From positions 6,838-70,837 of IMG/VR virus record IMGVR_UViG_3300025162_000050: a stretch of DNA of 64,000 nucleotides. The stretch is one strand, 5' to 3'. Origin of the DNA: a virus. The notes under the pieces were generated by a model. The model worked only from the letters and a program-made list of their open reading frames with translations, searched no databases and had not been told where the DNA came from. The translations under genes and the position numbers were made by a program. Positions 4,860 through 59,420 of this stretch are shown here, piece by piece; positions within the stretch are counted from its first letter, which is position 1; each line of letters begins with the position of its first letter.

Positions 4860-5632
4860 TGGCACATACCTACAGGGATATTGTATACGCTATCTTTGAT
4901 GAGTGTAAGGTGATTTCTGACGACGCTTCACTCGAGGTAGAGCACGTAATTCACATTGCTCATAAATATCGTGGACTTTTATTCACACAAAAATATAAAG
5001 GCAAAAAGGTAGAAATACCTTTTGCTTATTATCAAAGACTTAATGTATATTTTGACACCTCATATAATAATGGGGAAGTATATCAATCAATTAAACAACT
5101 TCCAAATATATTAGACATTACCAATTTATGGCAATATACATTTGTACATAATGATGGTATGCGTACTGAAAATCTAAACTTTATCAATCCGCAAAGATTT
5201 AAGGTTGTCGGATATAATAAGTGGCTTAAAAATCAAGTGTATATAACGATAGATTTAGATAATAAGATGTATGTTAAAAGTCCCAGAAGCAACTCAGCCA
5301 ATCAAGTAAATCTTGTTGGAGAGGTAGATGTTATTACAGACGAATTAATTAACACTTTAATCTCGGAGGATGAATTAAGTCAATTGATCTCTGAGACCCT
5401 TGGGGATGCATATATCTATTATGATACAATACTTGATAATCCAATAGAAGGATATAGATTTAATGATGATGAAACTTTGGATGTACTAGACTTTACATTT
5501 CCATGCGAAGAGTCATTAATTCAACCAATCATAGATTTATGTCTTAAGGAGATTGGAATTATCAATGGCATTCCAAGAGATGCAACTAATAACGCATCCG
5601 ATGATTCAAGTCTACCTAAACAACAAAATTAA
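4859..5632 (+). CDS. putative tail ring protein (crAss-like)
   Basis: 257 aa, with TYRDIVY...SDD N-terminus and FP.E..L...I...P.D..NN..D C-terminus. TAATG-coupled to both neighbours. Confidence 0.6.
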   Translation: MAHTYRDIVYAIFDECKVISDDASLEVEHVIHIAHKYRGLLFTQKYKGKKVEIPFAYYQRLNVYFDTSYNNGEVYQSIKQLPNILDITNLWQYTFVHNDGMRTENLNFINPQRFKVVGYNKWLKNQVYITIDLDNKMYVKSPRSNSANQVNLVGEVDVITDELINTLISEDELSQLISETLGDAYIYYDTILDNPIEGYRFNDDETLDVLDFTFPCEESLIQPIIDLCLKEIGIINGIPRDATNNASDDSSLPKQQN

Positions 5633-23300: not shown

Positions 23301-26300
23301 TCAGTGGAAAGAATGCATATAATACTTTAAAATCATTTACAGATGGTGTTGAGGCAATTGAAAATTGGTTTGCTAATAATGATATTGCGACTAAATTTGG
23401 TGATTTAGATTTTGGTGTATTAATTAATCTTATTGCACAATCAAAATATATTGCTAAGAATAGTGATAATACAATATCATTTGTAACTCAAAATGAAGAT
23501 TCATTTGAAAAGTTATTGATAGACAATCCAATTACACAGCGTATTGCGGATATGTTTGGTAATGACGTTGATAAGTTCAAACAATTTATTAAGGAGAATG
23601 AGCAATCTATTGAGAATATAATTGATGCACACTATAAAGTTGAAGATAAAGTTTCTGAAGTTAAATTAGATGAAGACACAGAAAATGAATATGGATTCTC
23701 TGATTCACTAGATAATTTTGATTCAAAGATAACTCAACTCGCATCTTTATTTAATTCAATTCTAAATGGTATTTCGATAGATTCTGTAAATGAAGATTTC
23801 GTTAGAGACCAATTTGGAATAACTAATACAGATGATATTGCTGAATTTATCAAGATATTCAAAAAGATTAATATTGACAATGCATTTAGATTAACTAATC
23901 TATGCTCGGAGGCATTTCGTGAAAACAAACTATTTTCAAAAGGTGCATCACAAAAAATAGATTCAGATAATTATAAGGATGTTAGAAATGTAAGAGAGCT
24001 TTTTAAAATTATTCTTAAAGATAATAGAATTCTTGGAGTTCAAAATACAACTCAATATGAATGGCTTCCAGATATAGAAGATGGCAAGGATAGAAATGGT
24101 AAGACTAAATATAAACATCACGTAGTAGTTGCTAGAAATGTAAATGAAGCAAACGTAAGAGATGTCAAGAAAGACGTAGTTGTTACTTCTAAAAAGATCG
24201 GTCATAGACATAGCGATATTCAATCTATATTAAACAATATAGTATTAGCTAATAAGTCTATTAACAATAAAAACTTTAGAGCAAATAGAACTTTAGCTGA
24301 AATTAAAAATGGTAGTTCAAACAAAACTAAAAAGTCTGTATCAATTATGAATACTGACAACGAGTTTTACTTTGATAAGAATGCTGAAGCATTTGATAAG
24401 ACTATTGATAGAAGTTCAGATGAAAAAGTTGCTGAAAACTTAGAGGCTGTTAGAGCTAATTCAGAAAGTTATACTTATAGACTTGCTGATTTAAAATATA
24501 TGCTTGATGAGAATAATAAACTCAGACGTAATATAGATGCTAATGAGGTTTCAGAAGCAAATAAATCAGGTAATTTTGATATGATGGAAGATTTAACAAC
24601 AACTAACTTTAGTGGTATTACTAAAACAACACTAACTGTTACCAATGGCAAATCTAAATTAGAAGCTAAAAAAGAGGTTAAATTTGAAGTTCAGGACGTT
24701 GAAAAACCAATAGATGAAGTTGCTGATATAGATGATTTACTACTTGAGAAAGATAATGAATCAGAACAATTAGTCGGTAGAGAAATTAAAGTTAATTCTG
24801 CATTAGAATACCTAAGAAGATTATTTCCAACAGAATCAGAAGATATGTTTAAATTCTTGGAAGCTGTTAGAAGTGGTGATAAGAGTGTTTTCGGTAGATT
24901 TGTAAATGGTATCATTGAAGTTGAAAAAGCATCATCTAATACTGTATATGAAAATATAGTTAGACACGAGGCTTTCCATAAAGTATGGAATGAGTATTTA
25001 ACTCAATCACAAAGAAATTCTATCGTAGAAGCATACTTAAATACTTTAACAGAACAACAAGAGAAAGAGCAAGGATTATTTGGACTTCCATTAGAACAAT
25101 TATCTAAGATACTTGAAGAAAAAATAGCTAGAAAATATCAAGTATATAATAAAAATCAAGATAAGAATTATGGCTTCATGCAGAAATCATTACTATTCTT
25201 AAAAGACGTATTCAGTAGACTTAAAACAATGCTTACTGGACGTAAATCTGATATAGAACATTACTTTGACTTAATTGATGGTGGATATTTTAATAAACAA
25301 TTTACAAACTTTAGAGGAACTCGTGGATACTATGGTATTCAAGAAGATTTTAAATCAGTAGATAGTTACATAATAGCTAAACAAAAAGTTGCTGAGATAT
25401 TTGCGCATATATCATCTGTTGGAAGAAATGGAAGTTTCATTCCATTCTCAGAGACAGAAATTAATGATTCTTTATTAGCTACAATGAAATCTTTACTTGC
25501 AAAAACTAAAGATATTGTATCTAAAATGGATGCGAATAATCTATTTGGACAAGATAAGATTAATTACGATAAGTATTTAAAAAATATAGAAGCATACGAA
25601 TCTTTATTAAAGACTAAGAATGGAACTAAATTTCCAGTGCTAGTTAAGATGTTAGATGAGGTACTTCCTGGTCGTGGTGAAAATTCTATTATAGATACTC
25701 ATGGAGAAGTTGTTAGTGATGGCAATGAATTAAGCATGAATGACATTGACGAAGAATCTGACGTTAAGACTGAAAATTCTGAAGGTACAGTATTATCACC
25801 GTTTGCAGTTAATTCAAATGAAGTTAATCAAGAGACTAAACTATTTGCAAAAATAAAACACTTCTTAATGACCATTAAGAATCTTAGTGGAGATTTTGTT
25901 AATAATAGATATGCATTTATTAGAGTATTCCAATTAATGGAAGGACTTAATAATGATTTAGATTCTTCCTCTAAGTTGAATATAATGGATCAGATTGCTG
26001 CTGTTTTATCTAAGAGTATCACTAAGTCTAAAACACTTAATGCAGTAGAATTAGAAAGTCAATATGGTAATCGTTCAGATGTTGCTATATTTCTCAAATT
26101 AAAAGAGATATATGAACTAGCTTCTGGAATTAATTATCCATCGTTTATGTCTAAATCTAATAAGGACTTAGTAAACGTTCCAATTAGAAACGACATAAAA
26201 GTATTCTTAGATAAGAATGGGGATGTATCTACTATTGCATATTCTAAAGATGGATCTGAAATAAAAGAACCTCTATTAATAGATATAAAAAATAACAATG

Positions 26301-29300
26301 AAATATCTGTTATAGAGAAATTTGATGATGAGAGTCAGAAAGAATTTGCAGAAAGAGCATTTAAATCAACTTTTGGATATAATGAAAAATCTAATATAGT
26401 TGAAATGTCTGCCATTATGCATAGAGAACTGGCTCGTAATAAATGAACTGAAATACAAAACACATTTAATTCGTTAAAAGAAGAACGACTTAAAATTGTA
26501 AAGAATAAGAATGATAATAACAATATGACTATCTCATCAACAGATGGTCAGTCATCTTCAAAGAATACGACTTTAGTTGGTGCTTTAAAGAAGAAAATAT
26601 CAAGCAAATTTAAGACTATTGATGAATTCAAAGCGTTTGTAACCAAAGATAAAAAGTTTGGCAATCCAGAAGTTTATGATAGTATAAAGAATGATCCTGA
26701 CAAAATAAAAGAATATTGTTTTGACTTCTTAAAGAAGATTGGTATTACCAATATCAGCAAAGCATCTGGTAGTGATATTAAATACACTGATTTAATGAAT
26801 AATATTTATCATTTTATGCGTACTAATGCATTGATGGCAATAGAAAAGATTGAATCAAGTAATAAAATATTTGAATTTAATGATAATTCTAATCTATTGG
26901 ATGACGAATTAAGAATGTCAGATGAATATGTTGAAGATTTATTTGAAGATGAAGGTGGTATTTTAGAATCTATATCAGACTTAGTAAATCCCGAAGATAA
27001 TCAAAGTGTTAGTTCTACGTATAGAGATGCAAAAGGTAAGAGATTGTATATGACAGTTCCTACCTCTTTTGCAAGCAAGGTATTTAAACAGTTAGGAATG
27101 ATGAAGTTATTCTCAAAATTTATTAATTTGCCACAATACCTTAGTACTGACTTTATGAAAGACAACATTATACAAAAAGGTCTTCAGGAGATTTATACAT
27201 TTAGAATGCATAGTGGTATTTTAAATACAAGTAAATACACAGATGATTCAGTTGTTGAATATGATGGTGAAGGATTCTCTCAATTTATATTGAGAACATT
27301 CTTAGCTGACTTTCTATCAAACTTTAAGAAATCTAAAAAGGGTGGTGATTATACATATGAACAACCTGTATACGTTAAGTCTAATAGAAAAGATTCTCAA
27401 TCAGCAAAGATAAACGTATTGTCATCTCGCAATATATTGGAAACTATATTTCCAACTATATTTAATCAGATGATGAAACAAAATATATCTGATGAATCAA
27501 GATGGGAAGATTACAGTGTAGATTCATTTGTAAATATGAAAAGATTAGAGAATGCATTAAGAGATGTACTTGGTGAAAACTATAAGTCGATCTTTAGAGA
27601 AATGCTTTCTAACAAACAATCTTTCTCAGACTTTACTTCTGAACAACAGTCTGCAATCAAAGAACATTTAAGAAATCAATTCGAAGAGGAATCTAAAGTT
27701 GTAGCTAAAAAGATTGTAAATGAAAATGTACAATTTGATGCAAAGACGAAAGATTTAATAAAGAATCTTCTTATGTTTAATGGAATGTCAGAAGTTGATG
27801 CAAAAGAAGTTATCAAAGATTTTTCTGAGAATCAGTCTAAAAACAACAACGCTAAAACTGGTAATACTGGAGTCTATTCTAATAAGCCAGAAATGTTTGA
27901 AAAAGCTATTGAGTTATTCTTAATGAATAATTATGTTAATTCATATGCTGTTACACAATTAGTAACTTCAAACAATAACTTCTTTAAGAATGGAACTTCA
28001 CTGCTTAAACGTATGTCTGTTGTATTTGGACCTGGATTATCTCCTACGGTTGGTGATTTAGGAATGAGAACAACAGCTAAAGTCTTAGTGATAGATGATG
28101 TTAATTACAAGCCAGAAGATAGAGCTATAATGATGAAGGCCGCAGGGTTCTCTCAAAGTGATATTAATGCAGTATTAGAAAAAGGTGGTGATGGTATAAC
28201 TGAATATGCAGATGGACAAGGATTTATAACCCCTAAACGCCATGCAGAATTAACTCGTGGTTATGGCACTTCATATAAACTGTCAACAGTTGGAAAACCA
28301 TTATGGTACACAATTGATGATAATGGAGTTCCTCATGCAGTTAAATATTCATGGGTGGTACTTACTGACCAACTGGTAAAAGATAATCCTCAGTTAGCTA
28401 ATTTAAGGGCTAATATGGATACTCATGATATTGGTGAGGCTGTATTTAAATCAGCAGTTAAAGTTGGTATTCCTAAAGGTATACACAGTTGGGAAGAGGC
28501 AACTTCAAGTGGATTAAAAGTAAATGATTCATCTACTATGACACTTAAAAATGCTGACTATAGATTACAGTTAAATCCAGCACACGACTTTGGTGAAAAT
28601 CACGTATCAATTCCTACACAGTTAATGTATATACTTAATATATTTCATGGTAATGAAGAAAGAGCTATGAAAGCATACGATGCATACAATAATATTATTA
28701 AGTTAGGATTATCTACTTTGATGGAATCCTTATCAAATAAAGGTGTTCTTAGCGAGTCTAAGATATCCAAAATGGTATTGAGGAAATTAAGGGGTTCTAA
28801 GTCTGCTGAAGTTGAAGCTGAAATGTTTGCCACTGGTATATCGCAAGACTTTCCAACATTAAGTAATAAAATAGTTAGCCAAATAGCATCTTTGTTTTCA
28901 AAGAATACTATATCAACTAAGTTTATGGGCGGTAAGACCGTTTTACAGGCTGCTGTTGGAGTTAAAAATAGAGAAGGCAAGGAATTATCATATAGTACAG
29001 AAACTATCAATGGTAAGCGCCACACAATCTCTGAAGCTTTAATTACTCATGATATGGCTGAGAAAACATTACCTAAAGAAGTATTTGATTATTTAGATGA
29101 ATTCTTCTCTAATCCAGCAAATAATGGTAAATCTCCAAGGGTTGCTATTGTTGGTGGTGATATGTTAGGATTTCGTATTCCATCATCTGAAATACATAGT
29201 GCTGTTGCACTTAAAATTGAAGGATGGTTTGAAGGTACTGGTAATAGCATCATAGTTCCTAAATATATTGTAGAGATTCACGGTAGTGACTTTGACGTTG

Positions 29301-31975
29301 ACTCGTTATTTATTATTGGTAGAGAATTTATCAAAGATAAAGATGGCAAGATTTTAAACTATAAACAAGTTGATGGTAAATGGGTATTTAATCAATTATC
29401 ACAAGATGAGATTAATAACTTATCTTATGGTGATAAAATGAAATACTTTAAAAGCATCATTACTGACTCTATATTAGAAGCTACAGTAGACCCTGTTAAT
29501 ACAGTCAGAATGCAATCTCCTATTACAACAAAGCAATTGAGTGATGTTAGACAGGAGATATACAATGAAACTGGAACTAAAGCAACTAAAAAAGACTTAG
29601 ATAATTCTGATTTTATGGAATCGTTTGAAGCTCATCAGTCATCTCATAATGGTTCTGCTGGAACTGGTATTGCTGCTAGTGCATTTAAAACAATTGCATA
29701 CGCTATACGGGCTGGAGAAAATAACGAGATACCAACAGTAACAACTACTGGTCAACAATTAATGATTGATGGCAAATTAGTTGATAAATTATCAAATAAT
29801 TTAAAGCTATACGAATGGCTTGACGCTTTGGTAAATGCTGCTATTGATAATGTGAAACTTCAAGTATTACCATTCTTTAATTTAAATTCAAATACATTTG
29901 CCATATTCATTGGGATGATGGCAATGGATGGAGTTGGTTTAAAATATGCAGCTAGAATGTCAAGACAATTGTTCTTTAAACAAATAGCTGACTTTAAATC
30001 TCCAACATCAAGAGATTTTGGATTTAAAGAAACTAATAAATTAATTGAAGAATTAAAACAACTAGTTAAACATGAGTCAATAGAAGCTACGGATTATCAA
30101 TATAAAGATTTAGTTCTTCAAGAATTGAAGGATTCATTGAAGTTTGCAACTGATAATAATATATCTTCATTATCTGAATACTTATCTGATTTAAGGTCTG
30201 GTAAGGTAGAACTAACTGATGAACATAAAGCTTATATTAATTCTCAAATAAAATTCATGGAATATCTCAAAACATTTAAAAAGATAGGTGGTGACTTAAC
30301 TTCATTGTCTGGATATTTATCTATAATAAGAGATATGCCAACAACACAACTTGAAATTGAAAGAAAACTAGAAGTTGAGAATGATATATTTGAGAAAGAC
30401 GATAATGGCAATATGGTTTCTAAAGAGAACTTCTCAATAGGTCTTAAAAATTTATTTGAATCTGCACCACATATTAAATCTGCATCAGAAGTCTTACATC
30501 AATTAAATGATGTAAATAAGATGTATATATTCAAACATGGTCCAATAGTAAAATCACTTATAGACTCTATTAAATCAAGTCCAGAAGCTATTAATGAATC
30601 ATTAAAACCTGAAAGTGAATTAGAGGATACTGAAAAGTCAAATTCAAGTTCAATAAAAGGTGGTAAGGAAACAGAAATATCTATGAGAGATGAGGTTATT
30701 AGATTCTTAATGAATTGTATTAACTGAGATCCAAAATTCAAAGGATATGATTCTATACCAGATGCTAGAATAAAAGTTAACAATAAAGAAACTAAAGTTT
30801 CTGGTGTTGATGCTTTTAAGAAAAACTTTGGTAAAAAGGTTGAAGCTATAATGAGTTATTTGGAGTCAAACAATATTCCTAATAGATTTATGAAAGAATT
30901 AGTTGGTACTGTAATGTCTAATACTATTATAGATTGGAAGATGCCACGTTCTGTTGAATTTAAATCAGATGATATTATTCAATTAAAAGCTGAATTCGAT
31001 AAACTAAGTCAATACGACGTTGTTTTTGAAGACGGTAAATACAAAGTAGTTCTTTCAGATAATTTAGATTATAAAGAATGGCAGAAAGACTTTGTTAGAT
31101 ATGGTATATCAGTTAATGGAATGTCGTTTGGTGCTACTAATTTTTCAATGGTATTACCAGACGCATTATATAAACCAGTATCTGATGGACTATCTAATCT
31201 TATTAGCAAAATAAAATCTGATAGCACTGTGTTAATGAGAAATAAGTTAAACTTCTTCTATCAATATATAATGAATAATCCAGAAGTTATTAAGCTTGCT
31301 TATTTGAAGAAAGTTACATCCAAAGGTAAATATTCAGGTTTTGCAGAGATAAATGGTCAAACACATTTTTATGATATGCAACTTGAATCTAAATCTGAAG
31401 ATGATAAATTCAACTTATTAATAAGACAAGTAAATAATAAAGGCAAATCATTCATATATAAACTTATTGGAGTTAATGGTAGTTCGCTTTACTATGTGAA
31501 GTTAGGTGCTGAAAATCCTTCAAATTTTTATAATATGTCAGAAGATTTATTCTTTGGTGCTGACGGTGATTTTTATATCAATACAAAAATTCCTTCATTA
31601 GCAGTAATTAATAACAATGACAAAGAGTTTAAACTAGAAGGTCGTGATGGTAAGGAAAATGATTTATTATCAATGCTTAAAGCTAAGTATGATAAAAATC
31701 CATTTATCATTGCAGTACACAATTATACAGACGTAATGAGAACTGGTTCAAAAGAAGTTGTTGTTGAAATTAAAGGCAATAAACTTGTAGTCGTTGATGA
31801 AAAGGTTTATAAAGCTACAGTAGAAGAAGAAGTAACTGAAGTTGTTGATAATTCATTTGAAGCAAATAAAGACGATATCTTAAATAAATTCGCTGAAGAA
31901 ACTCAAGAATCTTGGGATGCTAAAAACGAAGAAATCAAATCTGAATTAATTAAACAAATTAAAGAGGGTTGTTAA
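17336..31975 (+). CDS. giant virion RNA polymerase polyprotein, 4879 aa (SF1 helicase-like + zincin + two-barrel RNAP), 3 TGA=Trp
   Basis: Four track ORFs share one frame and are separated only by TGA at 18404, 26444 and 30725. Motifs: catalytic GSDFDVD (~29282), RIP (~29174), DGQG (~28211), HEAFH (~24965) and GIAGTGKT (~21386). Confidence 0.9.
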
Positions 31976-31990
31976 TCAATAAAAATAAAT

Positions 31991-34900
31991 ATGGCAAATT
32001 GCATAAATATTAATCATCCAGAGTTCCTCCAAATGGTGAGGGACTCTGGTCTTTCAAGAGCAGATTTATGTGCTCATATAGGTATTTGGATGAGAAATAA
32101 CAACTCTGAAAATTGACCAACATTAGAACAATTAAATTTAAATAAATCTGACGAAAGTAAATTATCAAACGTTTTTGAAAAATTAATTGTATTATCTAAG
32201 AATGCAAAAGATTCAATTTCTAAAGTTATTGATTTGTTAGCTAAATCCTCTAAAAGAGATGATTTAATTCTAGGAGAATTATCTAAAAGATTATTCAATA
32301 ATACGTCTTATCAAATACTTAGTTCTGGTGAATTAAAAGAAAGATTTAAAGAGTTTAATAAAAATGATATTGCTTTTTACGATGTTTCATCAAACATAAT
32401 CTTTATTAACTCAGACAACAAATTAAACTCAGATGATAAAGAATTCTCAAAAACAATGATGCATGAAATTATACATGCGGCAACAGTTCAAAGAATTAAA
32501 CAATTAGCCAATAAGATAGCAAATAAAACCGCAACTAAACAGGAAATCGAATTAAATGATGAATTAAATAAAGTTTATTCATTAGCCAAATTAAATCTTC
32601 AAGATAAATTTCCACAATACTTTCAAGAAACTAATTCATTGGAAGAATTTGTTGCTGGAATTTTAGACCAAGACTTTCTTGATGAATTAAATAAAATTGA
32701 ATATAATGAAAATGCAAATTTATCATTAAAAGATAGAATTTTATCAATTATCAAACAAGTTCTTGGAATAAACGAGAGGACTCTTGCTGCTGCTGCTTTT
32801 ACTAATTTATTTAATTTGGCTGACATTAAAAATGATGAAGAGTTTAATCCATCTGAAGAAATATTTAAACGTACTGAGGGTATTGAAGATTTAAGTGAAG
32901 AGACTCAAGCTATCATAAACAAAAACGAAGGTCTTGAAGTTGAAATGGTCACTAATGAAGCTGGTTTACAAGTCCAAGGTGAGCATTACATTAATTCAGA
33001 AGGAAAACTATTCAATCGTATTACTTATGGCGCTAAATCGCTTCTAAAGGCGTTCCTACCATATACATTTAAACAGAATGATGATTACGCGAAGTCAGAG
33101 GCTGATAGACGTTGGGGAGAATACGACCATAGCACCAAATTTTCTATTGAAGGTAAATTATATACATATGATGAATACTTAGAAAATCTTAGAACTATTA
33201 ATACTCGTGGAACTGCAAAGGGTAATATTATCCATGCATTAAACGAGTTAATAAATGCAATAACAGCAGAAAATATTAGTCGATTAAAAGCTAAAGTTTA
33301 TTCTATCGAGGAAGAGAATGGTATAACTCATGGTAATTACAATTGGTTTACGAAAAGTATTAGACAGATATATGAAACTCTTGGAATAAATAAATTTAAT
33401 GATAATATTCCAATAGAACTTAGAGATAAAGTTGTATGTGAGGTTCCAATATCAAGTGAATTACTTGGATATGGTGGTTCTATAGATATGTTAGTTGAGC
33501 ATAATGAAAAGATAAGGAACTATCTTGGAGAAGAAGTTGGTAATATGATGAGTATCTATGATTTAAAATCAGGATATTCTGTATTAAATAAACTTGGTAA
33601 TGCTGTATTGAGATATGGAGAGCAAAGTAAATATATTAGTAATGGAGCTATGGATATGGCAAAACTTCAGGTTATGTTATATGCATTTATGATTAAACTT
33701 GAAAATCCTAATCAACAATTTAGAACACTACAAGTTGTTACCGTTCAAAATGAATACGAAGCCACTAATAAGCATAATGATTCAGTTGTAGAAGTTGATG
33801 CTTATCTTGGAATGCTTGAGGAATTTTTTAGGGATAAAAAGTTAATGAAAGAGTTGGAAATGGAGGATAATCTTTATTCAAAAATGATAGCCCAATCACC
33901 TAATTTATTTACTGAAAGTCATTATCATCATTCTCAATTTGAAAAGTCGGATATTGCAAATGTAGAAGAGTTGAATACGAAAATAAATTGTCTACAACAA
34001 TCATTACATGAAATTGGTATTAAAGATAATCCAAGAAAAGAGATCGAAATTCAAGAAAAATTAATCGAGCTCAATAAGCAAAAAATGGATTTAGAGAGTG
34101 ATTTCAATCAAATACCATTCGACCAAAATAAGGCAAATAGAACCTCATTTCTTGCGAGATGGTTGGGTGGACTTAAAGATTCTAACAATCCACTAGTTAT
34201 TGCTTTTAGACGAGCATGAGAAGCTGCTGAAGTTAGAGTTACAAAAAGACAATTAACAGCAGCAAATGAGATTGGCAAAGAAATGGACGCACTCAGAAAA
34301 GAGTATTATCAATCTAAAGGTATAATGAAATCTATAGAAGGTGATAATCTTGATATGTACAAACCATTACTTAAAGAGGCTTTTGTTGAAAATGTTGGTA
34401 GTGTAGAAAGACTTATTATAGAGTCAGATGAGGAGTGGAATGGTTTAACTCAAGTTCAAAAAGATTTTATATTAAAGCATGAAGAAGTAATGCGTAGAAT
34501 ATTTCTTGAAAAAGATGCTTATATTAATAAAACAGCATCCTACGATGTAAATAATAAACCTAAATCACACTTAAAACTTCAAAGCCCTGATTTTATATAT
34601 TATCCAGGATTCTTTGCAAAAATTCAACCATCTAAATTGGATCTACAACGTAGGATGGGAGATGGTAGTGTTAGTGCTGCTTTACTAAATCCTAAGTATC
34701 ATAAATCTATGTTGGCAGATGCATTATCATTTAATAATGAGAATATATTTGATAAATACGATGATGATAAAATCGCAATACCAATTAAATATTTAGGTTC
34801 AAGAGAATGGGATTCTAAGAGATACTATTCTTATGATATTGGAACAGCACTTATCAACTTTAATTCATGGATTGAATACAAAAAAGAGATGGATGTTATT

Positions 34901-36505
34901 TATACTGCTGGAAAATCTATCACATTCCAATTAGGTCGTGGATTTAAAAGCGATGAAAAAGATTTAAATACAAATATTCAACGAGAAATTGATATAATAA
35001 ATGGATTTTTAAGAAAAAATGTTAGGGGTATATCTAATACTGGTGAAGATTGGTTTGCTGGTAAACCGCCTAAAATCATGACTAATCCAATAACTGGACA
35101 ACCAGTATATTTCTTACCACAGAAATTTATGTCTGGACTATCCAGTTGGGGTAGACAAACTACTATGTATTTAAAACCTTGGGGTGCTACCGGTAATATG
35201 GTTCAACAACAATGGTTATTGCATAGAAATGGATTAAATTATTCATGAGCTAAAAAGTGGTTTGGAGATGAAAATAGTCAAACTGATTATAGTTTAGCTG
35301 ATGCTGTTCAAGGAGATTTAGCTTTTGCTGAAATAGCCAAAGATATGGTATTGAACAATCTTCATAACAATAAGATATGGAGATTGATGGAAATGCATAA
35401 CTATATAGATGGAAACTCAATGAAAGCTATTGAACGTAGGTCTAAGACACTTAGGGAAAGAACTTCAATAAGTGAGGCTATGTTAATACTTCACAGTACT
35501 GGTGAGCTATTTTCATTGGTTACAACTTATGTAGCTCAATTGAATCATATGAAACTTAAAGATGGTCGTTCATTCTTAGATGCTTATGAGATTGATGAAA
35601 GTGGTGAAGTTGCATGAACTGGTGGTTCTCGTGGTAAAATTAAAATGCTCGATGGCTCTTATAGGGAATTAGATGAACTTGATAGTAATGAAATATCTAG
35701 GTTTAAGCGAGTTCATGAAAAAATGTTGGGTAGTTATCGTTCTGATGAGTTTTGTGGATTAGAACTGTATGCTATGGGTCAATTCTTCTTATCACTAAAG
35801 AAATATTTTCCAAGAATTGTATTAAACTTATTTGAAGGTAAAAAAACTGATTTTTATCTAGGTGAATATGCCAAGATAGGACAATACAATATCGAAGGTA
35901 AAGATGAAGATATATACGCATGGAAAGGTCGTGAAATTGAAGGTAAGTTTAGGTCTATAATTCATGCGTTTTCAATTGCTGCATCATTTTCAACTTTAAG
36001 ATTTGAAGACGCTAAGCAGAAGTGAGAACAACTTAATTTTGAACAAAAGCGCAATATCCTTGAAGGTATACAAACATGCGCTGAATGGGCTGCTCTTGCC
36101 ATTCTTTATTCTATGGTATTTGGTGCAACTTCAGATGATGATGCTCGTAAGAAATGGTTTAAAATGTATATGTTAGACAACTTAGCTCAACAGTATAATC
36201 CTATTGACCAATTAAGAACATTATCAAATGTAACACCAGTAGGTCTTGCAAAAGCATTTAAGGCTGGTGTTGGTATATCTACAATGTCTTTTGCTCTTAT
36301 GGATTTAGGTATGGGAGATATGGAAGGTGCTTATACTCAAGAAGGCGATTTGCGTGGTTGGACTGAGGTTCAAAAGTCTATTCCATACTATGCTTCATAC
36401 TATGATTTCTTCAAGAAATTAAGCACTATATCTGGATCAACTGATGGACAAGAAAAATCTTGGTTTGAAGGATGAGCTGATATGGATTACACTAAAACTA
36501 AATAA
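31991..36505 (+). CDS. large cargo protein with zincin and PD-(D/E)xK nuclease-like domains, 1504 aa, 6 TGA=Trp
   Basis: ATG 31991 to TAA 36503, with TGA at 32114, 34217, 35246, 35615, 36023 and 36473. Motifs HEIIH...EEFVA and E..I...GSIDML...YDLKSG...QVMLYA. Hydrophobic helices near the C-terminus. Confidence 0.85.
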
Positions 36506-45011: not shown

Positions 45012-46412
45012 TTAATTTACTGGTGTTTTAAATGACATTTCTTTATCATCTATTAAATCAAAATATCCATAAGTGTCACCAAATTTATTTTGACACATCT
45101 TGTTATAAACTTTACGTTCTTTGATGTAATCCAATAAAATAGCTGTTGTTTCTTCATTATATGAAAATTCAATTACATCTTTCAATATAATAGATTTTAT
45201 TGGAGTACCATTTTCTGCGTAATTTAAAATTGCCATACAAATATACAACCAGTTTACCAACTTATCAATATTTGTTGTTGCATTATGAACTCTAAATTCC
45301 ACAGTTTTAATATTATTACCAAATAACATATTAATAAAATTACAATAATAGTAGCGAGAACGAACTTCCCATTTTCTATCACGACCTGGGTCACTTGGAT
45401 GAGGTCTGGTTAAATCACCATTCCAATCTGCATGTCCATCAGATAAATAATTGTAAAGAATTTCTATTGAATTCATTTTCTGTGGAAGTTTCTTACAATA
45501 ATCTTTACCATTTGATTTATAATGACTTGTTTGATAGACATAGTATGGAAATAATTCTCCAATTTCATCTTGCAATGAAAAGCATAAGTTATATAAATCA
45601 AGTATCTTAGCTTTTTCTAATGGAAATCCCCCTAAATGCAAATGAACTGAACAATCTTTATTAATATTGCAACTACTCTTTAATTCTTTCATTTGATTAG
45701 CAAGTAAATTTATACCAGCAAATCCTTTCATTGGAATAGTTGTATATTCATGACCACTAATTGAACCATCTCTTAATGGAATTAATCCCAATTGTTTACA
45801 TTTATATTCAGGAATAATACCAGCAGATGTTTCTACTTCAAACCCAAAAGAATATTTATCAATAACTTCTTCATATTTTTGACCAACTAAAAGTTTTTCT
45901 GTATATTTTGAATTATCAACTTGTGCAAACTTTTCAATTAGATTTTCTGAATTATATAGTCTTTCAAATGAATAAATATATGCATTACCTTTTTTATCCG
46001 TAGCTTTATCAAATCTTTTTGAACAGGCATATTTATAGTCATAAAATAATCCATTATATTCATCAAATACTTTTGGAATTAAATCAAACAATTCTTTACT
46101 ACACACAATATATCCACCATAGATAGTATATAATTGATAATCATATTCAAATTGTTTTTCAAATTTTCCATGTTTATATGAATCATTTTCATATCCAATA
46201 ATTCCACTAATTACATTTGGAGTAATTTTTTTCCATTCCTGTTTTACATCATCAAAATAAATTCTAGGATTTCCTTTGCGAAACCACCTACCATCTATAT
46301 TGAAGCAATCGACATTCTTTTGATAATATTCCCTATTAATAGAAATACAGTCTTTTTTATTAACTGTATTTCCAAATATTGTTGTTACTTTTATTTCTTT
46401 AATTTCTCGCAT
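45012..46412 (-). CDS. putative amidoligase (COOH-NH2 ligase fold, Amidoligase_2-like)
   Basis: FGFEVET, RDGSI, E..T.P, CSVHLH, SRY...N and TVEFRVH motifs. Confidence 0.85.
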   Translation of the reverse strand: MREIKEIKVTTIFGNTVNKKDCISINREYYQKNVDCFNIDGRWFRKGNPRIYFDDVKQEWKKITPNVISGIIGYENDSYKHGKFEKQFEYDYQLYTIYGGYIVCSKELFDLIPKVFDEYNGLFYDYKYACSKRFDKATDKKGNAYIYSFERLYNSENLIEKFAQVDNSKYTEKLLVGQKYEEVIDKYSFGFEVETSAGIIPEYKCKQLGLIPLRDGSISGHEYTTIPMKGFAGINLLANQMKELKSSCNINKDCSVHLHLGGFPLEKAKILDLYNLCFSLQDEIGELFPYYVYQTSHYKSNGKDYCKKLPQKMNSIEILYNYLSDGHADWNGDLTRPHPSDPGRDRKWEVRSRYYYCNFINMLFGNNIKTVEFRVHNATTNIDKLVNWLYICMAILNYAENGTPIKSIILKDVIEFSYNEETTAILLDYIKERKVYNKMCQNKFGDTYGYFDLIDDKEMSFKTPVN

Positions 46413-47919
46413 AAATTTCCCTAAGGTTTTTTCTAATCATTTTTTTAATTTGATTATTTGATAATTTTCCTAATAATATTTGCTCGTCTAAAGCTTTTTG
46501 CTCTAAACTTTCTTCATAATATGAAGCTTTATCCCTATATTCATAATGCCATGTTATATCACCATTTTGTACAATATATCTATTTCTAGTAAAGTCAAAG
46601 AATGGTTCAAATGGTTCATTACATAATTGAGTATCTCTTAAAACTTCATTATAAGTATAAAACTCTATGAATTTATGTTTTGTTGCATCTTCAATTATAT
46701 ATGGCACTGGTGTCGGTGAATATGCTGATAAATACATTTCTATACAATCGTCTTCGCATACTTGAAAATTCTGACTAACAAATTGTTTTGCACACAAATA
46801 ATCAAAATAACTTTTCATTAATACACCAGATACAAAATAAAATGTTTTTTTGATAACTATAGATACATCCGTGTATCCAGCTGGTGTTGATTCTATCAAT
46901 CCTTCACATGGATATCCATTATAATAATAAAGTCCATCTTCATTAAAGAATATTTTATTCTTTTGGATATAATTTGATACTTTTATCTTGTCACATTTTG
47001 CACTATCTACCCACTTCTTTCCATATCCTCTGTCACCATAAACACCACTTTGAGCTCCGTATTCAGGCCATTCTTCAAAGTCCTCATAACCACCATATGC
47101 AATACGTGATTGAGGAAATTTCTTAGCATTTTCAGCACGTTGTTTTTCCCAATTTACAACTAGTTTATCAACTTGCTTGCGCTTAGACCTGTCAATTGCA
47201 ATTTCAGATATTATTCTACCATTTTTAATAGTGAATAATATATTACTTTCTACATTTTCAACTTTAGCATCAGTATCATTAATAAATTCTAAAGATTCTT
47301 CCATTGATGAAAACCAATATGAATTTTCTTCTTTAATACAAGACAATGGTCTTTCGATGTAAATATCGTTGTCATTTTCATAGTATAAAGATGCTCCTTT
47401 GAATACTTTAATAGTATCAATTCCATCACGCCAATCCCAAAAAACAAAGGTTCCAGCTCCATCATATTCTTCAAGAACTCCATATCCAGCTTTATAAACT
47501 ATTCTACAGAATATTTGAGAATCAGATTCAGTTAATGTAAAATCTACATTATATTTAGTTGCAAGCTCTTTGTAATTTATTAAAGTGCCATTATGAATCA
47601 TTGAGAAAACAATTTCATTACGTTCATTCCTGATCGCCACTGGTTGAGCTGTTGCTAAACTAATCCCACCCACTGATGCTTTACGGCAATGTAATAATGC
47701 GAAATTTGGTAACTCAAGATCTACATCTTTTAATCCACCAAGTTCTACAAAATTCTTATAAAGTTTTGTTTTATCATGTCCATAGTGTACTGAATTTACA
47801 CCATCATTATTTATAAAGATACCACAAGAATCTCCTCCTCGTGAATCATTATATAGTCCAAGAATATTGAACTTGTATTTATTAAAATTATTTCCTATAT
47901 AGCCTGAAATCCCACACAT
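46399..47919 (-). CDS. class II (Ntn) glutamine amidotransferase
   Basis: MCGI N-terminal Cys, RG.DS.G, H.RKAS.G, HNGTL and SDS motifs. Confidence 0.9.
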   Translation of the reverse strand: MCGISGYIGNNFNKYKFNILGLYNDSRGGDSCGIFINNDGVNSVHYGHDKTKLYKNFVELGGLKDVDLELPNFALLHCRKASVGGISLATAQPVAIRNERNEIVFSMIHNGTLINYKELATKYNVDFTLTESDSQIFCRIVYKAGYGVLEEYDGAGTFVFWDWRDGIDTIKVFKGASLYYENDNDIYIERPLSCIKEENSYWFSSMEESLEFINDTDAKVENVESNILFTIKNGRIISEIAIDRSKRKQVDKLVVNWEKQRAENAKKFPQSRIAYGGYEDFEEWPEYGAQSGVYGDRGYGKKWVDSAKCDKIKVSNYIQKNKIFFNEDGLYYYNGYPCEGLIESTPAGYTDVSIVIKKTFYFVSGVLMKSYFDYLCAKQFVSQNFQVCEDDCIEMYLSAYSPTPVPYIIEDATKHKFIEFYTYNEVLRDTQLCNEPFEPFFDFTRNRYIVQNGDITWHYEYRDKASYYEESLEQKALDEQILLGKLSNNQIKKMIRKNLREIYARN

Positions 47920-54175: not shown

Positions 54176-54252
54176 TGGAATATCAGAGGGACTCAAACCC
54201 CCACAAAGCCCTTGTTAACGAGCCCACTCTATTCAATTAAGCTATGATATTC
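54176..54252 (-). tRNA. atypical/degenerate tRNA, anticodon undetermined
   Basis: Reverse complement folds as G-AATATCA/TGATATT-C-CA acceptor, D arm GCTT-AATTGAATA-GAGT, anticodon arm GGCTC-GTTAACAA-GGGCT (8-nt loop) and T arm GGGGG-TTTGAGT-CCCTC. Confidence 0.65.
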
Positions 54253-54308: not shown

Positions 54309-55232
54309 TTAATTATTCCAAAAGTTATCTGGTGTGGTTTGTGCTGCATTTGCAGGAATACCACTATTCATAGCTGCCATAAATGGGTCATCATCAACAT
54401 CTGCCGATGCCTTAGCTGGTCCCTCAAATACTGTTGGTTCGTTGTTGTAAATCCTGAATTTAAGGTCTGCTGGTCCAAAATCAACATTCATTTGTGATTG
54501 ACGTTCAGCAATGTCTCTTTTAATATATTCAAGATTAGTTGTGCCATATTTCAATGGTTTTTTCAAATACCAAGCTTGATATTGCTTGTTATCTTCATTC
54601 GTACGGACTCCACCGGCTAATAGTACAATATTGGTTTGTTTGCGAAGATTTACAACCGATACAAACTCTTTAATATCTCCATTAAAATAACTTTTAATTT
54701 TTTCAAGTTGAATTTCAGCCTTACTTATATCTGGAATAACTTTATCTTTAAATGCACGATTAGGAATTCCTAGATATTGTTTAAGAAATCCAACCAATTC
54801 CACTTCACCTCTAAATGCTGGACGCATCTTGGTTGTATTATACCAAGCCATATTATCAGGTACTGTATTCTTCTTAGCATCTTCTACTGGAATACAAGCG
54901 TTTTCTCCATAAAGATTAAGCATATATACTTTACTTTCGTCTGAAGTATATGCTGGTTTATCTTCAAGAAAAAATGGTATTTTAGTAATGATTTCTTCAT
55001 TGCAGCCTAATTTATCATTGATTACAGTTTTCATTATGAAGTCAATCCTCAATTTCTTTACTCCAGCTTCATCTGCTGAAATATATTCAGGCTCTTTTTC
55101 TAAATCCCTACCATAAATTGCTTCTAATTCTTTTTTACTTGGGTTAACAGCTACCACCATTAATGGGATTAAACCTGTCATTAATCTTGCACCACCCTGT
55201 GTTTCTTTTGTTTCAACTCCTTGTGAAATCAT
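54309..55232 (-). CDS. single-stranded DNA-binding protein (crAss-type)
   Basis: VVAVNPSK.EL, EPEY and RIDF motifs with an acidic DDDPF tail. Lies between the primase and the AAA ATPase. Confidence 0.7.
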   Translation of the reverse strand: MISQGVETKETQGGARLMTGLIPLMVVAVNPSKKELEAIYGRDLEKEPEYISADEAGVKKLRIDFIMKTVINDKLGCNEEIITKIPFFLEDKPAYTSDESKVYMLNLYGENACIPVEDAKKNTVPDNMAWYNTTKMRPAFRGEVELVGFLKQYLGIPNRAFKDKVIPDISKAEIQLEKIKSYFNGDIKEFVSVVNLRKQTNIVLLAGGVRTNEDNKQYQAWYLKKPLKYGTTNLEYIKRDIAERQSQMNVDFGPADLKFRIYNNEPTVFEGPAKASADVDDDPFMAAMNSGIPANAAQTTPDNFWNN

Positions 55233-55235
55233 CTT

Positions 55236-55424: not shown

Positions 55425-55512
55425 ACTGATTTAATTTCTTCTTCTGGAACGTAATGACAACAATAAATTAATTGTCCTTCAGAACTTCCTATACAATAAA
55501 ATATGTTCATAA

Positions 55513-56211
55513 TTAAATTCCGTAATAGTTACGAATTGTATCGTCTACTAATTTTAAACTATTTGGAATTAAAAAGTCATTAAACATTCTTATTGGACTT
55601 TTACCAGTACTTCTATTTGCTTGAGTTTCAAATTCATAGGTATTTGCACCTCTTAAACCTCTTGTCATACTTGTAAATAATACTATTGGAAGTTTACTTT
55701 CAAGCTTAATTTTTTCTAATTTCTTGCCATTAGTAACTAGACATTTAGTTTCTTCTCCATCAGCATCAGTAAATACTGTTGTATGGCCAGCTAAATATAC
55801 AATTATATCTGGTCTTAATTCTACATTACAAAACACAATTAATGAATATATTTCCTGCGCCAAGTCGGCCCACTTGTCGTGAGTTTTCTTTTTGATATCA
55901 TTCATTTCTTTGTCAAGCATAATACCATTCATTGTATCTATATATATAGATTTTACTTGCTGAATTTTATTTAATTCTTTAAGTTTATCCTCAATTTCTT
56001 TTTTGTCTGATATTGTAAAGACATTTCCACCTTCAACCCAATTCTTATCACCAGGAAATGGTAAATCTTTTCTATCACTATTAATAATAACCGTTGATTT
56101 TGGATTCATCCCCTCATATCGTTCGGGATTGTAACTTCCATCTGGGTTAATTACTATAGATGTCGTTTTGCCCATACCACTTGGGCCAAGAATTCCTACT
56201 GTTTTAGCCAT
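55513..56211 (-). CDS. AAA ATPase (AAA_24/Sak4-like)
   Basis: GPSGMGKT Walker A, IYIDT Walker B and KSP..MF...IPN.L motifs. Confidence 0.85.
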   Translation of the reverse strand: MAKTVGILGPSGMGKTTSIVINPDGSYNPERYEGMNPKSTVIINSDRKDLPFPGDKNWVEGGNVFTISDKKEIEDKLKELNKIQQVKSIYIDTMNGIMLDKEMNDIKKKTHDKWADLAQEIYSLIVFCNVELRPDIIVYLAGHTTVFTDADGEETKCLVTNGKKLEKIKLESKLPIVLFTSMTRGLRGANTYEFETQANRSTGKSPIRMFNDFLIPNSLKLVDDTIRNYYGI

Positions 56212-56233
56212 TAACTAATTGATTTATAAGTAG

Positions 56234-56896
56234 TTAGTTTTTTAGTCTTATTCTATTTAGTATTATCTCAGTGGAGTATCCACTTCGTAAATTAAACATT
56301 GCATCTAACTCTTTTCGTTTATAATTATTTTTATTTTCTCTTATAAAACATATGGTTTCTCAACTTATTTTTGATTTTAATGATTTTCCTTTGCTCATTC
56401 TTTCTCCAATAATTCTCCTATCTTCTAATGTTTTATCTTTTCAGAACAATTCAATTTTTGGATATTTTTTATTTTTAAGTTGCTCCTTAGTCATTTTTAA
56501 ACCCGTATTTCATGGTTTTCTTCCAACAAATAAGTTATGCATTTTTAATTTATGCTCTTCGGTGTGTTTGTATCCACCTCTAAATGCTCCACCTTTTGCT
56601 AAATTCACCAAATCACATCCAATAGATCTAAAATAACTTATATAAAATATTTCCAAAAAATCTAAATCAAATTCTGTGTTTTCTATTATCAAAAACTCTG
56701 GTTTTAAATTGTTTTTTAATACATTATTAATTCAACAATTTAAATGAGTCTTTGAATTATGTCTTCCATTATATATATGACTTCTATATCTTTCATTTGG
56801 ATTTCCAATTGTTTGTCCAATATATCTTAATTCATCCGTTCTGGGATCTATTAGCCCATAAATATATTTTTTATTTTCTCAACCAATTTTTGCCAT
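56234..56896 (-). mobile_element. free-standing GIY-YIG homing endonuclease with NUMOD3-like motif, 220 aa, 5 TGA=Trp
   Basis: ATG 56896: MAKIG[W]ENKKYIYGLIDPRTDELRYIGQT...R...H...HLNC[W]I...E.FYI...LVN...GG...HTEEHKLKM...GRKP[W]NTG. TGA at 56879, 56732, 56510, 56441 and 56360; TAA at 56234. Confidence 0.85.
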
Positions 56897-58101
56897 ATAT
56901 TTCTTCTTTTCTCTTTTAATTCATCATTTTTAAATAAAAACATTGCAACCTTTTTGGGTTGTCTTATACTATCAAGCATTGAATAAACTTTTGCTATTCC
57001 AATGTCATCATTTGGTAGTGGTAATTCACGGAAGTAATTTGTACATCCGTCAAATGCCAGTGGAGCTATTGATCCAGCACCACCACTTCTTGAAATTATA
57101 ACCTCTACAAATCTCACGTTGTCACGCATCCTTGAAATATCGTATCCAAGATAATTTTGTAATTCCTGCTGAAATGGACTAAAGATTCCGAGCATGACAT
57201 CACAATCTCTTGCAAGCACCTTGGAATCACCGAGATCTGCTACTGATGGCTTTAGCTTGCCCATCTTTACATTTTCAATTGATTGTCCCTGTATAGATTG
57301 TTGTTGGATTACCACCGGAATGTACTTGTACTTATTTCTAAGAGATACAAGATAATCTGATGATAATTTTACCATTGATTCTTGAAGTGTTAATGGCCTA
57401 CCATTAGTTGCTTCTGATTGTATTAATGATATATGATCTATCATGCAAAACACATACTCATCTTCATCAAACGGCTCATAATAATCGTCTACTTCTTTTG
57501 GAGTTATTTCTTTTGTCTCATTATTTATAAAATTAATAATCTTTTTATGTTGCTTTCCTTTTATTGCAGCATAATCTTTCATAAACCTAAAAATTCCCGT
57601 AGGATTTCGTATTGAATCAATTATTTTTACATTTTCTTCAAAAAACATTAAATATCTTTGGTATTCATCTGTTTGTAGAATATTAAGAATTTCTTCATCT
57701 ACTGGATGCTCTGAATTTGTAGACCTTAAATCTCTTGGTGAAATCCTGTATTTGCCTCTTGATAGTATATGTAATAAATAACACACAAACTCTTGGTATA
57801 AATCTTCTTGACTTATTTCTAATGAAAATATAAATGCCTTCATTCTCATTTTGTCAGGATTTTCAAGAGCGTACATTAGAGGTCTGAATATAAAGAAGTA
57901 ATAAGAAAATTTAGACTTACCCGCCTTGGTCTGTCCAGTGATATTATAGTACCTACCTCTCTCTATTCCTGCAAATTCTTCTGAAAATCTTTTGAATGGA
58001 TTGGGTATACAATTTATCTTACCAGATAGAACACGCTCCCTAGAATTTTTTAAACTATTAAATACCCTACTGAATAGTGTTTCTTTTACTTGTACTTCCA
58101 T
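56851..58101 (-). CDS. dnaB: DnaB-like replicative helicase
   Basis: GQTKAGKS, FSLEIS, IDHISL, IQQQ, DLGDSK...RD.D and R.GG motifs. Confidence 0.85.
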   Translation of the reverse strand: MEVQVKETLFSRVFNSLKNSRERVLSGKINCIPNPFKRFSEEFAGIERGRYYNITGQTKAGKSKFSYYFFIFRPLMYALENPDKMRMKAFIFSLEISQEDLYQEFVCYLLHILSRGKYRISPRDLRSTNSEHPVDEEILNILQTDEYQRYLMFFEENVKIIDSIRNPTGIFRFMKDYAAIKGKQHKKIINFINNETKEITPKEVDDYYEPFDEDEYVFCMIDHISLIQSEATNGRPLTLQESMVKLSSDYLVSLRNKYKYIPVVIQQQSIQGQSIENVKMGKLKPSVADLGDSKVLARDCDVMLGIFSPFQQELQNYLGYDISRMRDNVRFVEVIISRSGGAGSIAPLAFDGCTNYFRELPLPNDDIGIAKVYSMLDSIRQPKKVAMFLFKNDELKEKRRNIWQKLVEKIKNIFMG

Positions 58102-58685
58102 ATAAACCCTCCAGCAGTATTAAAACTTTTTATATTTTTACAACACGCAGAGATTGCCCAAGTTGAGATTTTTAAATTTCTATAAACATCTGCCATAGAA
58201 TCCCAATTTTTTATAAATTGTCCATCCTTGGAAAATTGTATTATTGCTTTTGAAGCTTTATTTTTTACTCCTAAAAGACCAGTGTGAGAACCAACTCTAT
58301 TTAAAACATTAAACGAATGTACTACATTTTCCTTATTTATTACCCATTCAAGATTTTTTAATTTGTTATTATTCTTTATGCCATCTTTATGAGTAATTTG
58401 TGGCTTATTTTCTGGATTATCCAAAAAGGCGATAGCAACTAACCTATGAATGAATATGTTTTTTCTTTTACCTTCATAAAATATTTTTACTTTTTCATAA
58501 CCGTCCTTATCTTTTGTCTTGGCAAGAAAATGCTCTAGTACCCATAAATATTTACTTCCAAATAAAACATATTTTTCTATTTTCTTTATGTTTCCAAGAT
58601 TGCTAATTTTAAAATAACTACCAAATCCATCTATAAACTTCCACTTTTGCCAAATAAATTGTTTAAGTATTTTTCTTTTTTTCAC
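58086..58685 (-). mobile_element. free-standing NUMOD4-HNH-NUMOD1 homing endonuclease
   Basis: W.FIDG....F.ISNLG, HRLVA.AFL.NP..KP...HKDG.K.NN...NLEW and TAGGFIWKY motifs. All Trp codons are TGG. Confidence 0.9.
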
Positions 58686-59257
58686 TACATCAGCCTATTT
58701 GTCCACATTTCATTCTGATTATCACTCTTTACTTCGTCAATATTCTCTATAATAGTCATTAACTCAGATGAATTTTCTTTCTCCACAAAATATGGCAAAA
58801 TTCTCATAAGTTGCTTACTATCCCCAAAGCTCTCAATATACTTTTGTGTAGCTTTTAATATTAACTCTGAATCATAATGACCATATTTCTTAAAGAATGT
58901 CTTTAATTTAGCTTCTACATTTGACTTATTATCTCTCCAATACTTAGTTGTTCCTTGCTTTTTGCCTTCAGGAAACATTAACCTCATTTGTTCAGCTAAT
59001 AATTCTATATCCTTATTAGATACTTTTTTATCAACAGATATACATTCAACTTCATTTATAAAGCTAAGCCCATCTTCTGTTAGAAAATATCCAACATTAT
59101 TTTCCATTATAAATCCATACTCAAGAATTTGGGTTAAGTTAATGTTTATCTTAGTCCCAGGATAATACATAAGTATCATCATGAAAAGATAAGATGTTAC
59201 ACTTACACTATATTCTCGGAGTATAGATTTATCAATTTGTAACAGGTTGTTGCTCAT
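58685..59257 (-). CDS. conserved crAss-like replication-region protein
   Basis: 190 aa, FP.GK...WR....KL..F...Y...AT..YI pattern, upstream of DnaB. Function unproven. Confidence 0.65.
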   Translation of the reverse strand: MSNNLLQIDKSILREYSVSVTSYLFMMILMYYPGTKININLTQILEYGFIMENNVGYFLTEDGLSFINEVECISVDKKVSNKDIELLAEQMRLMFPEGKKQGTTKYWRDNKSNVEAKLKTFFKKYGHYDSELILKATQKYIESFGDSKQLMRILPYFVEKENSSELMTIIENIDEVKSDNQNEMWTNRLM

Positions 59258-59418
59258 TCATTTTTTTTAATTTGTTTTTCATTAATTCTACCCAAATCTT
59301 TGTCGTAATAGCTTTCTTCACTTCCAGTTAAAACTCAATGATTATATTCCCATAATGCAATATTCCATATATTTGAATTTCTTAAAAACTCAACCCAATA
59401 ATAACCTTTTTCTCTCAT
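59254..59418 (-). CDS. small Trp-rich phage protein with internal TGA (59335-59337)
   Basis: MREKGYYWVEFLRNSNIWNIALWEYNH[W]VLTGSEESYYDKDLGRINEKQIKKNE, then TGA at 59254. If that TGA is also Trp, it ends at TAA 59203. Confidence 0.65.
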
Positions 59419-59420
59419 AA

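Follow-up and report, generated by a model that had tools for sequence, protein, structure and literature searches.

Results

Endonuclease gene with five TGA codons

The window analyzed in this study, a 64-kb stretch of a single 70.8-kb viral contig with an estimated completeness of 71%, carries on its minus strand, between the genes for a DnaB-like helicase and an AAA_24-like ATPase, a free-standing gene that, to judge from its sequence, encodes an intact GIY-YIG/NUMOD3 homing endonuclease. In our assessment it is probable (roughly 0.7) that this endonuclease is written in the late code and inserted in a phage that uses two codes, and that the whole protein would be made only with opal suppression. 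The features that bear on this reading, including each of the five TGA codons of the gene, are listed in Table 1.

Table 1. Positions of the endonuclease gene, its TGA codons, its neighbors and the muzzle protein gene in the 64-kb window.
Feature	Position	Strand	Details
Muzzle protein gene	6908..12568	+	1886 codons; 15 in-frame TGA, 12 TGG; crAss_MUZ match (E 4e-219) across TGAs
AAA_24-like ATPase gene	55513..56211	-	0 TGA, 2 TGG; starts 22 nt past endonuclease end
22-nt spacer and second start copy ATGGCTAAA	56203..56233	-	ATGGCTAAA heads AAA gene (MAKTVG...)
GIY-YIG/NUMOD3 homing endonuclease gene, free-standing	56234..56896	-	predicted product P0001, 220 aa with TGA read as Trp
TGA codon 179	56360..56362	-	C-terminal region, variable column; P0004 has D there
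TGA codon 152	56441..56443	-	variable linker, column unconserved (A1)
TGA codon 129	56510..56512	-	W of NUMOD3 'KPW-N' motif
TGA codon 55	56732..56734	-	catalytic domain; Trp in 12/12 sequences of alignment A1
TGA codon 6	56879..56881	-	first barrier under the standard code; translation ends after MAKIG
Captured start ATGGCAAAA	56888..56896	-	overlaps dnaB 3' end; opens endonuclease (MAKIGW...)
DnaB-like helicase gene	56851..58101	-	Pfam DnaB_C; 416 aa; 0 TGA, 1 TGG; 1175 homologues
NUMOD4+HNH_3 homing endonuclease gene	58086..58685	-	7 TGG, 0 TGA; between gene 58685..59257 and dnaB

The endonuclease frame (56896..56234) comprises 220 codons and a terminal TAA and is free of in-frame TAA and TAG, the chance of encountering such a frame being ~7e-6 at the given composition (30.2% G+C; TAA and TAG together 5.2% of trinucleotides). 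Reading of the frame bore out the preliminary description, according to which all five Trp codons are TGA and none is TGG, with the first of them at codon 6. This spelling differs sharply from that of the remaining minus strand, where a single sense TGA accompanies 112 TGG codons (Fisher p = 3.4e-8). The longest TGA-free stretch of the frame extends over 73 codons, and none spans the whole catalytic domain. The gene and both of its junctions showed 0 differences in contigs obtained from runs of two other studies, and the TGAs are therefore not assembly errors.

The immediate surroundings are likewise as they had been described: both the dnaB and the AAA gene are TGA-free, the endonuclease gene overlaps the end of dnaB (its final 46 nt, the last dnaB codons extending into the endonuclease gene), and the HNH endonuclease on the other side of dnaB spells Trp with TGG only. 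Promoter-like sites were no commoner than in shuffles (19 vs. 25.6 +/- 5.1), and the sole terminator-like hairpin (56961..56946) was rejected as a candidate, as it falls within conserved dnaB coding sequence.

Identity and integrity of the predicted protein

A search of 5.8 billion proteins yielded 11 homologues of P0001 at 34-77% identity, the closest being P0002 (77%), P0003 (65%), and P0004 (46%); P0001 and its homologues were combined in an alignment of 12 sequences (A1), and the four closest sequences in a further one (A3). The GIY and YIG motifs are found in the N-terminus of P0001 (YIYGL at residues 11-15 and RYIGQT at residues 24-29), and the invariant columns of A1 are I12, Y13, Y25, G27, R36, H40, W55, E82, and N98, with I26 nearly so. 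Four of these (R36, H40, E82, and N98), which are thus the same in 12/12 sequences, presumably correspond to the catalytic residues of I-TevI. The Pfam NUMOD3 model matches residues 108-138 above its cut-off (E 1.6e-5; 25.1 bits vs. 20.4 bits), and TIGR01453, a model of group I intron endonucleases, matches P0001 below its own (E 4.7e-7; 30 bits vs. 56 bits). A comparison of the A1 profile with the PDB gave weak matches to GIY-YIG chains (9u7u_A, E 0.017) and, for the C-terminal DNA-binding part, a match to I-HmuI (1u3e, E 7e-6). The motifs, the invariant putative catalytic residues and the NUMOD3 match uphold the assignment to GIY-YIG homing endonucleases that had been made from the open reading frame. 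Relatives were also detected in a scan of viral contigs (all at <=46% identity and all spelling Trp with TGG), in one metagenome scan (7 loci, <=40% identity) and by tblastn (3 weak records).

Trp stands at the TGA columns in the homologues at codon 55 across the whole of A1 and at codon 129, where W is invariant among the four closest sequences (A3) and P-W occurs in 5 of the 12 sequences of A1. The columns of codons 152 and 179 are variable and give no such agreement, and at codon 6 the W of the closest homologue, P0002, is one column off in A1.

The same set of codons could in principle be read as nonsense mutations accumulated by a dead endonuclease. Homing endonuclease genes decay after fixation, and P0001 has no match at E <= 1 to the Pfam GIY-YIG model (PF01541), which is matched by 8 of the 12 members of A1 (best E 9.4e-8). 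Nevertheless, a frame restored to TGG can reach a stop codon by 142 one-step routes, only 5 of which lead from TGG to TGA, and the probability that five hits would all be of this kind is ~2e-9 (5e-4 if only transitions are considered), with no TAA, TAG or frameshift among them. Moreover, the catalytic columns are intact in P0001, and TGA is demonstrably read as Trp elsewhere in this genome (see below). A decaying pseudogene is very unlikely because all five stop hits are TGG-to-TGA changes.

Insertion at the dnaB/AAA junction and the captured start

A scan with the single dnaB protein gave 0 matches, and related loci were obtained by a scan with an alignment of 24 DnaB sequences, which yielded 80 loci from viral contigs, onto which nine neighboring proteins of the window were mapped. 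The gene order that is conserved among them runs from the SNF2-type helicase gene through gene 58685..59257 (g58685), dnaB, the AAA gene and gene 54309..55232 (g54309) to the primase gene. The preliminary description had suggested looking for relatives with an empty dnaB-AAA junction, and these were found: the two genes abut in all 33 loci in which both were detected, with a projected gap of -98 to +25 nt in 31 of the 33. At two loci, L128 and L129, only the later part of the AAA protein was matched, and in L128 the AAA N-terminus is readable directly after dnaB. A GIY match at this junction was found in none of the 80 loci, one of which (L061) has such a match 1.3 kb downstream. In P0013, the closest DnaB in the protein database (89% identity), the C-terminal tail is an out-of-frame reading of the AAA start region; the dnaB tail thus reads into the start of the AAA gene, and the site is therefore empty. 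As the AAA gene directly adjoins dnaB in relatives, the endonuclease gene is an insertion. Neither a variant nor a joint skipping the endonuclease was seen in the four DNA runs that were mapped.

The position of the insertion can be specified further from the start codons. The echo between the MAKIG start of the endonuclease and the MAKTVG start of the AAA gene, to which the preliminary description had drawn attention, is real, with ATGGCAAAA at 56896..56888 and ATGGCTAAA at 56211..56203. In two relatives (L053 and L052), ATGGCAAAA at the equivalent place overlaps the 3' end of dnaB and starts the AAA gene itself (MAKVIG... and MAKILV..., respectively). The C-terminal tail of dnaB in the window differs from those of relatives beyond ATGGCAAAA. 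The endonuclease is inserted just behind the first AAA codons and uses the AAA initiation site, which accounts for the echo between the two starts; the closest homologue, P0002, begins with MAKV, and this start fits the same target site.

A side observation concerns the degree of conservation along this locus. Compared with L052 and L053, the window's dnaB is 58% and 54% identical, and its AAA gene gives no hit and 50% identity, respectively, whereas the flanking primase gene (87% and 92%) and gene 54309..55232 (89% and 88%) are well conserved. From this divergence of dnaB and the AAA gene between conserved flanks it follows that the segment between the two endonucleases (55513..58101), which is mosaic-looking, may have been exchanged.

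Two codes in one phage contig

The contig represents a partial crAss-like phage with two codes. Its plus strand encodes, by Pfam matches to crAss-like virion components, tail ring proteins 1, 2, and 3/4, an auxiliary capsid protein, the muzzle protein and cargo proteins 1 and 2, and its minus strand, from 36.6 kb on, carries primase-like, DnaB, SNF2-type helicase, NT5C and amidoligase/GATase genes. Metagenomes of freshwater, lake water and freshwater sediment, originating from several studies, contain near-identical sequence; a blastn search of GenBank phages with a 2.9-kb stretch of the early block (45012..47919 of the window) gave 0 matches. The labels 'early' and 'late', as used here for the two blocks, were assigned from gene content and from published work.

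The muzzle gene serves as the reference for TGA read as Trp in the late block: under table 11 it falls into at least 7 pieces, and with TGA translated as Trp it forms a single frame. At its TGA sites, relatives carry W in 6 of 10 aligned positions (standard-code G005) and in 7 of 9 (TAG-recoded G004). Likewise, the phrog_403 gene (3891..4859) gives an end-to-end profile match only with TGA110 read through, and the cargo protein genes read through TGA as well. Altogether, the plus-strand block contains 40 TGA and 94 TGG codons in the curated code-4 ORF set. The minus-strand block contains 112 TGG and 11 in-frame TGA codons, the latter being made up of 5 in the endonuclease gene, 1 other sense codon and 5 gene ends, 4 of which form an ATGA overlap with the start of the next gene. 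With the endonuclease excluded, the TGA/TGG ratios of the two blocks (1/112 vs. 40/94) differ at p = 3e-11. It is because of this difference in block counts and gene ends that we read TGA as a stop in the replication block and as Trp in the structural block. The code of the muzzle gene also varies among relatives, with internal TGA in G001 and G003, TAG in G004, and neither in G005.

The endonuclease is not the sole early-strand gene with a sense TGA. The other one is a small ORF (59254..59418, minus strand) that is squeezed in between gene 58685..59257 and the SNF2 helicase gene and has a sense TGA at codon 28; this codon aligns with a TGG-encoded W of the homologous ORF in the relative L052. 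At codon 55 the same ORF has a second TGA, which overlaps the start of the next gene as ATGA, and from these two codons it follows that TGA would serve this ORF both as a sense codon and as a stop.

Suppressor tRNA and the code of the host

ARAGORN found 0 tRNAs in the window or in the whole 70.8-kb contig, which is an estimated 71% complete. A tRNA with a TCA anticodon (73-74 nt) is encoded by two of the five relatives searched (G002 and G003); in G002 its distance from the replication block is ~13 kb, in the direction in which the present contig has already ended, and its flanks have no counterpart in the present contig. From the tRNA(TCA) of these relatives we infer that the present phage, too, has an opal suppressor.

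A tRNA-like element at 54178..54251 (minus strand), considered as a candidate for the missing suppressor, was rejected, as its anticodon is not TCA. It is located between gene 54309..55232 and the primase gene, matches the Rfam tRNA model with 34.5 bits (29-bit cut-off) and combines a perfect 7-bp acceptor stem with an anticodon loop (GUUAACAA) that has 8 nt or is irregular in some other way; with ARAGORN it is reported as 'tRNA-?(Leu|Val)', and this only once the threshold is relaxed. In the relative L052, a 130-nt tRNA-like match (8132..8261) occupies the position of this element. A further RNA match was observed in L055, a TAG-recoded crAss-like relative, where the replication-side region contains a tmRNA match at 1244..1576 (plus strand; Rfam RF00023, 61.8 bits vs. 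a 47-bit cut-off, full model length).

A different account of the contrast between the blocks would be a host that itself uses TGA for Trp, in which case there would be no gating at all and the TGG-rich replication block would reflect codon bias only. We give this account a very slim chance. It would be in keeping with a contig in which a suppressor tRNA was not detected and with a phage that is known from freshwater and sediment metagenomes. It would leave unexplained, however, why five early-strand genes end in TGA, four of them as ATGA overlaps, and why the split between the blocks is so sharp (1 TGA/112 TGG vs. 40/94). Furthermore, relatives encode their own tRNA(TCA), sister lineages use TAG or no recoding, and standard-code hosts have been published for such phages (Borges et al.; Yutin et al.). 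A TGA=Trp host code is unlikely because of the ATGA-type TGA stops, the sharp contrast between the blocks and the tRNA(TCA) of relatives.

Other endonucleases in the clade

The junction between gene 58685..59257 and dnaB, which in the window is occupied by the HNH endonuclease, is closed in 30 of 51 loci and measures 149-1587 nt in the other 21, with an HNH match in 4 of these filled loci (L101, L103, L107, and L113). This junction is a recurrent insertion site. The HNH genes at the four loci (about 4460..4971) are 33-37% identical to the window's HNH endonuclease.

Further endonucleases were sought by a profile search of the present contig (G000) and four relatives. It revealed three more GIY-YIG matches, G000:C1:4191-4847 (3 TGA, 1 TGG), one in G003 (4 TGA) and one in G004 (2 TAG), each of which carries the recoded codon of its own resident phage. 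All three are on the muzzle (late-gene) strand, the one of G003 directly after the muzzle gene. The copy of the present contig (plus strand; locus L161) is intact-looking and lies in the plus-strand block upstream of the window, with one of its TGAs at the 'EIFW' position after the catalytic Glu. No internal stop was found in the HNH_3 matches in G000, G001, and G002 (n = 3), and script inspection of the HNH and GIY genes located close to dnaB in other relatives showed no internal TGA or TAG. A screen of the early regions of relatives for recoded ORFs gave candidates that were rejected, most of them being neighboring genes joined across a stop. Within this small sample, late spelling of an early-block endonuclease is confined to the gene in the window.

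Discussion

Probable suppression-dependent translation of the endonuclease

The arrangement described above suggests how the gene would behave in the course of infection. Early, under the standard code of the host, ribosomes would initiate at the captured start codon of the AAA gene and terminate on reaching codon 6, with MAKIG as the sole product. The catalytic domain (residues about 10-100) includes TGA55, which would leave no usable TGA-free fragment; since no TGA-free stretch holds the catalytic domain, the whole protein would need opal suppression. Readthrough would require an opal-suppressor tRNA-Trp of the kind encoded by relatives and, with all five TGAs to be read through, the yield would be expected to follow approximately the fifth power of suppression efficiency. 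The result would be a steep threshold: only strong suppression would switch the nuclease on, and where a suppressor is absent it would not be made at all. The late timing of suppression, the co-transcription with dnaB and the activity of the enzyme are presumed here from the literature, and any benefit of the TGA spelling is likewise presumed. Translation only after recoding, the core proposal of the preliminary description, emerges as the best-supported mechanism, the standard code ending the protein after five residues. Against a gating function speaks the neighboring HNH endonuclease, which is ungated and shows that endonucleases at this locus do not require gating as a rule.

The main rival explanation concerns the cause of the TGA spelling and not the mechanism. 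It holds that a selfish gene that is not needed early would be under no pressure to keep TGG, the TGAs having arisen by TGG-to-TGA drift in a 30% G+C genome that tolerates TGA as Trp, or having come with the gene from a TGA-rich donor or from a late block; the suppressor would remain necessary for translation, although as a by-product. We regard such a passive outcome as possible, if only tentatively so. The endonuclease gene is the most A+T-rich of its neighborhood (25.3% G+C, GC3 15.4%), and its TGA share is indistinguishable from that of the muzzle gene (p = 0.13 against 15 TGA and 12 TGG), so that it may simply resemble a late gene in codon use. The three other GIY-YIG genes of the clade, with their resident recoded codons and their location on the late-gene strand, would agree with this as well. 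Yet the 5/5 TGA usage exceeds the late-block average of 40 TGA to 94 TGG (p = 0.003), the first TGA, at codon 6, aborts translation at once, and distant homologues in standard-code viral contigs use TGG.

A further-reaching interpretation, which we find rather doubtful, would see in the five-TGA spelling a selected, steep translational timer built into the insertion on the coupled dnaB-to-AAA start. Early infection would then produce a five-residue peptide only, and the nuclease would appear once suppression is strong. If this were true, the endonuclease families of the clade would differ in strategy, the recoded codon being present in GIY-YIG genes in 4/4 cases and in HNH_3 genes in 0/3.

Relation to known systems

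Free-standing GIY-YIG endonucleases of T-even phages (the relatives of I-TevI and the Seg proteins) combine a GIY-YIG domain at the N-terminus with a C-terminal part that binds DNA, the linker between the two carrying a NUMOD3-type motif; they are written in the standard code, and their expression is controlled by transcription or mRNA structure. The window's gene has in common with them the domain layout, the intergenic insertion between conserved genes and the presence in some and absence in other relatives. It differs from them in that the block sits in the genetic code itself.

The idea of gating an endonuclease by recoding is not new. For TGA-recoded Agate phages, Borges et al. (bioRxiv 10.1101/2021.08.26.457843, section 8) describe a group I intron endonuclease in an early gene that prefers TGA over TGG, and propose that in-frame stops block the production of the endonuclease until late infection. 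A literature search for homing endonucleases in phages with recoded stops brought up this preprint and the Lera phage report alone. Both cases involve a TGA=Trp phage whose early region houses an endonuclease that prefers TGA. The Agate endonuclease resides in a self-splicing intron inside an early gene, whereas the window's gene is free-standing between two complete genes, uses the captured start of the downstream gene and belongs to a freshwater crAss-like phage. A search for intron families gave 0 matches in the window or in 55000-59500.

The partial recoding of this contig is of the kind described for crAss-like phages (Yutin et al. 2021, PMC7886860; PMC12386605, on Lera phage), in which TGA=Trp or TAG=Gln occurs mostly in late genes, suppressor tRNAs are present, and the code switches over short phylogenetic distances. 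The latter also applies here (TGA in G001 and G003, TAG in G004, none in G005). The available text of the two reports contains no mention of early-block endonucleases in the late code; the word 'homing' does not occur in the main text of PMC7886860, and the supplements of the cited papers may list recoded endonucleases of crAss-like phages.

Against this background, the new elements are that the GIY-YIG gene is free-standing and resides in a freshwater crAss-like phage, that its start is a captured one followed by TGA at codon 6, and that the ungated neighboring HNH gene provides a contrast within one locus. They add an instance and an anatomical detail (start-codon capture) and no new principle. 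The locus nevertheless offers a clean natural setting in which to test the published proposal that a change of code in a phage times gene expression: two homing endonucleases flank one essential gene, one of them readable in both codes and the other only in the late code, and relatives supply the empty target site for comparison. If the lock were functional, it would show how a selfish nuclease can be prevented from doing harm before genome replication has started, and it might provide a compact reporter of the onset of opal suppression.

Additional features of the contig

Two further observations concern the late block. At 17336..31975 (plus strand), four table-11 ORFs (356, 2663, 1400, and 374 aa) lie in one frame, with nothing but single TGAs and TAA/TAG-free spacers between them, and form a 4879-codon frame with TGA read as Trp; at 31991..36505 (plus strand), a 1504-codon frame joins five table-11 ORFs across 6 TGAs. 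These two frames are probably giant late proteins and not separate genes.

In the early block, the segment 45012..52214 (minus strand) combines amidoligase, two glutamine-amidotransferase, COOH-NH2 ligase, ATP-grasp and gamma-glutamyl-cyclotransferase-like genes, a cluster that may constitute a nucleotide or DNA modification pathway.
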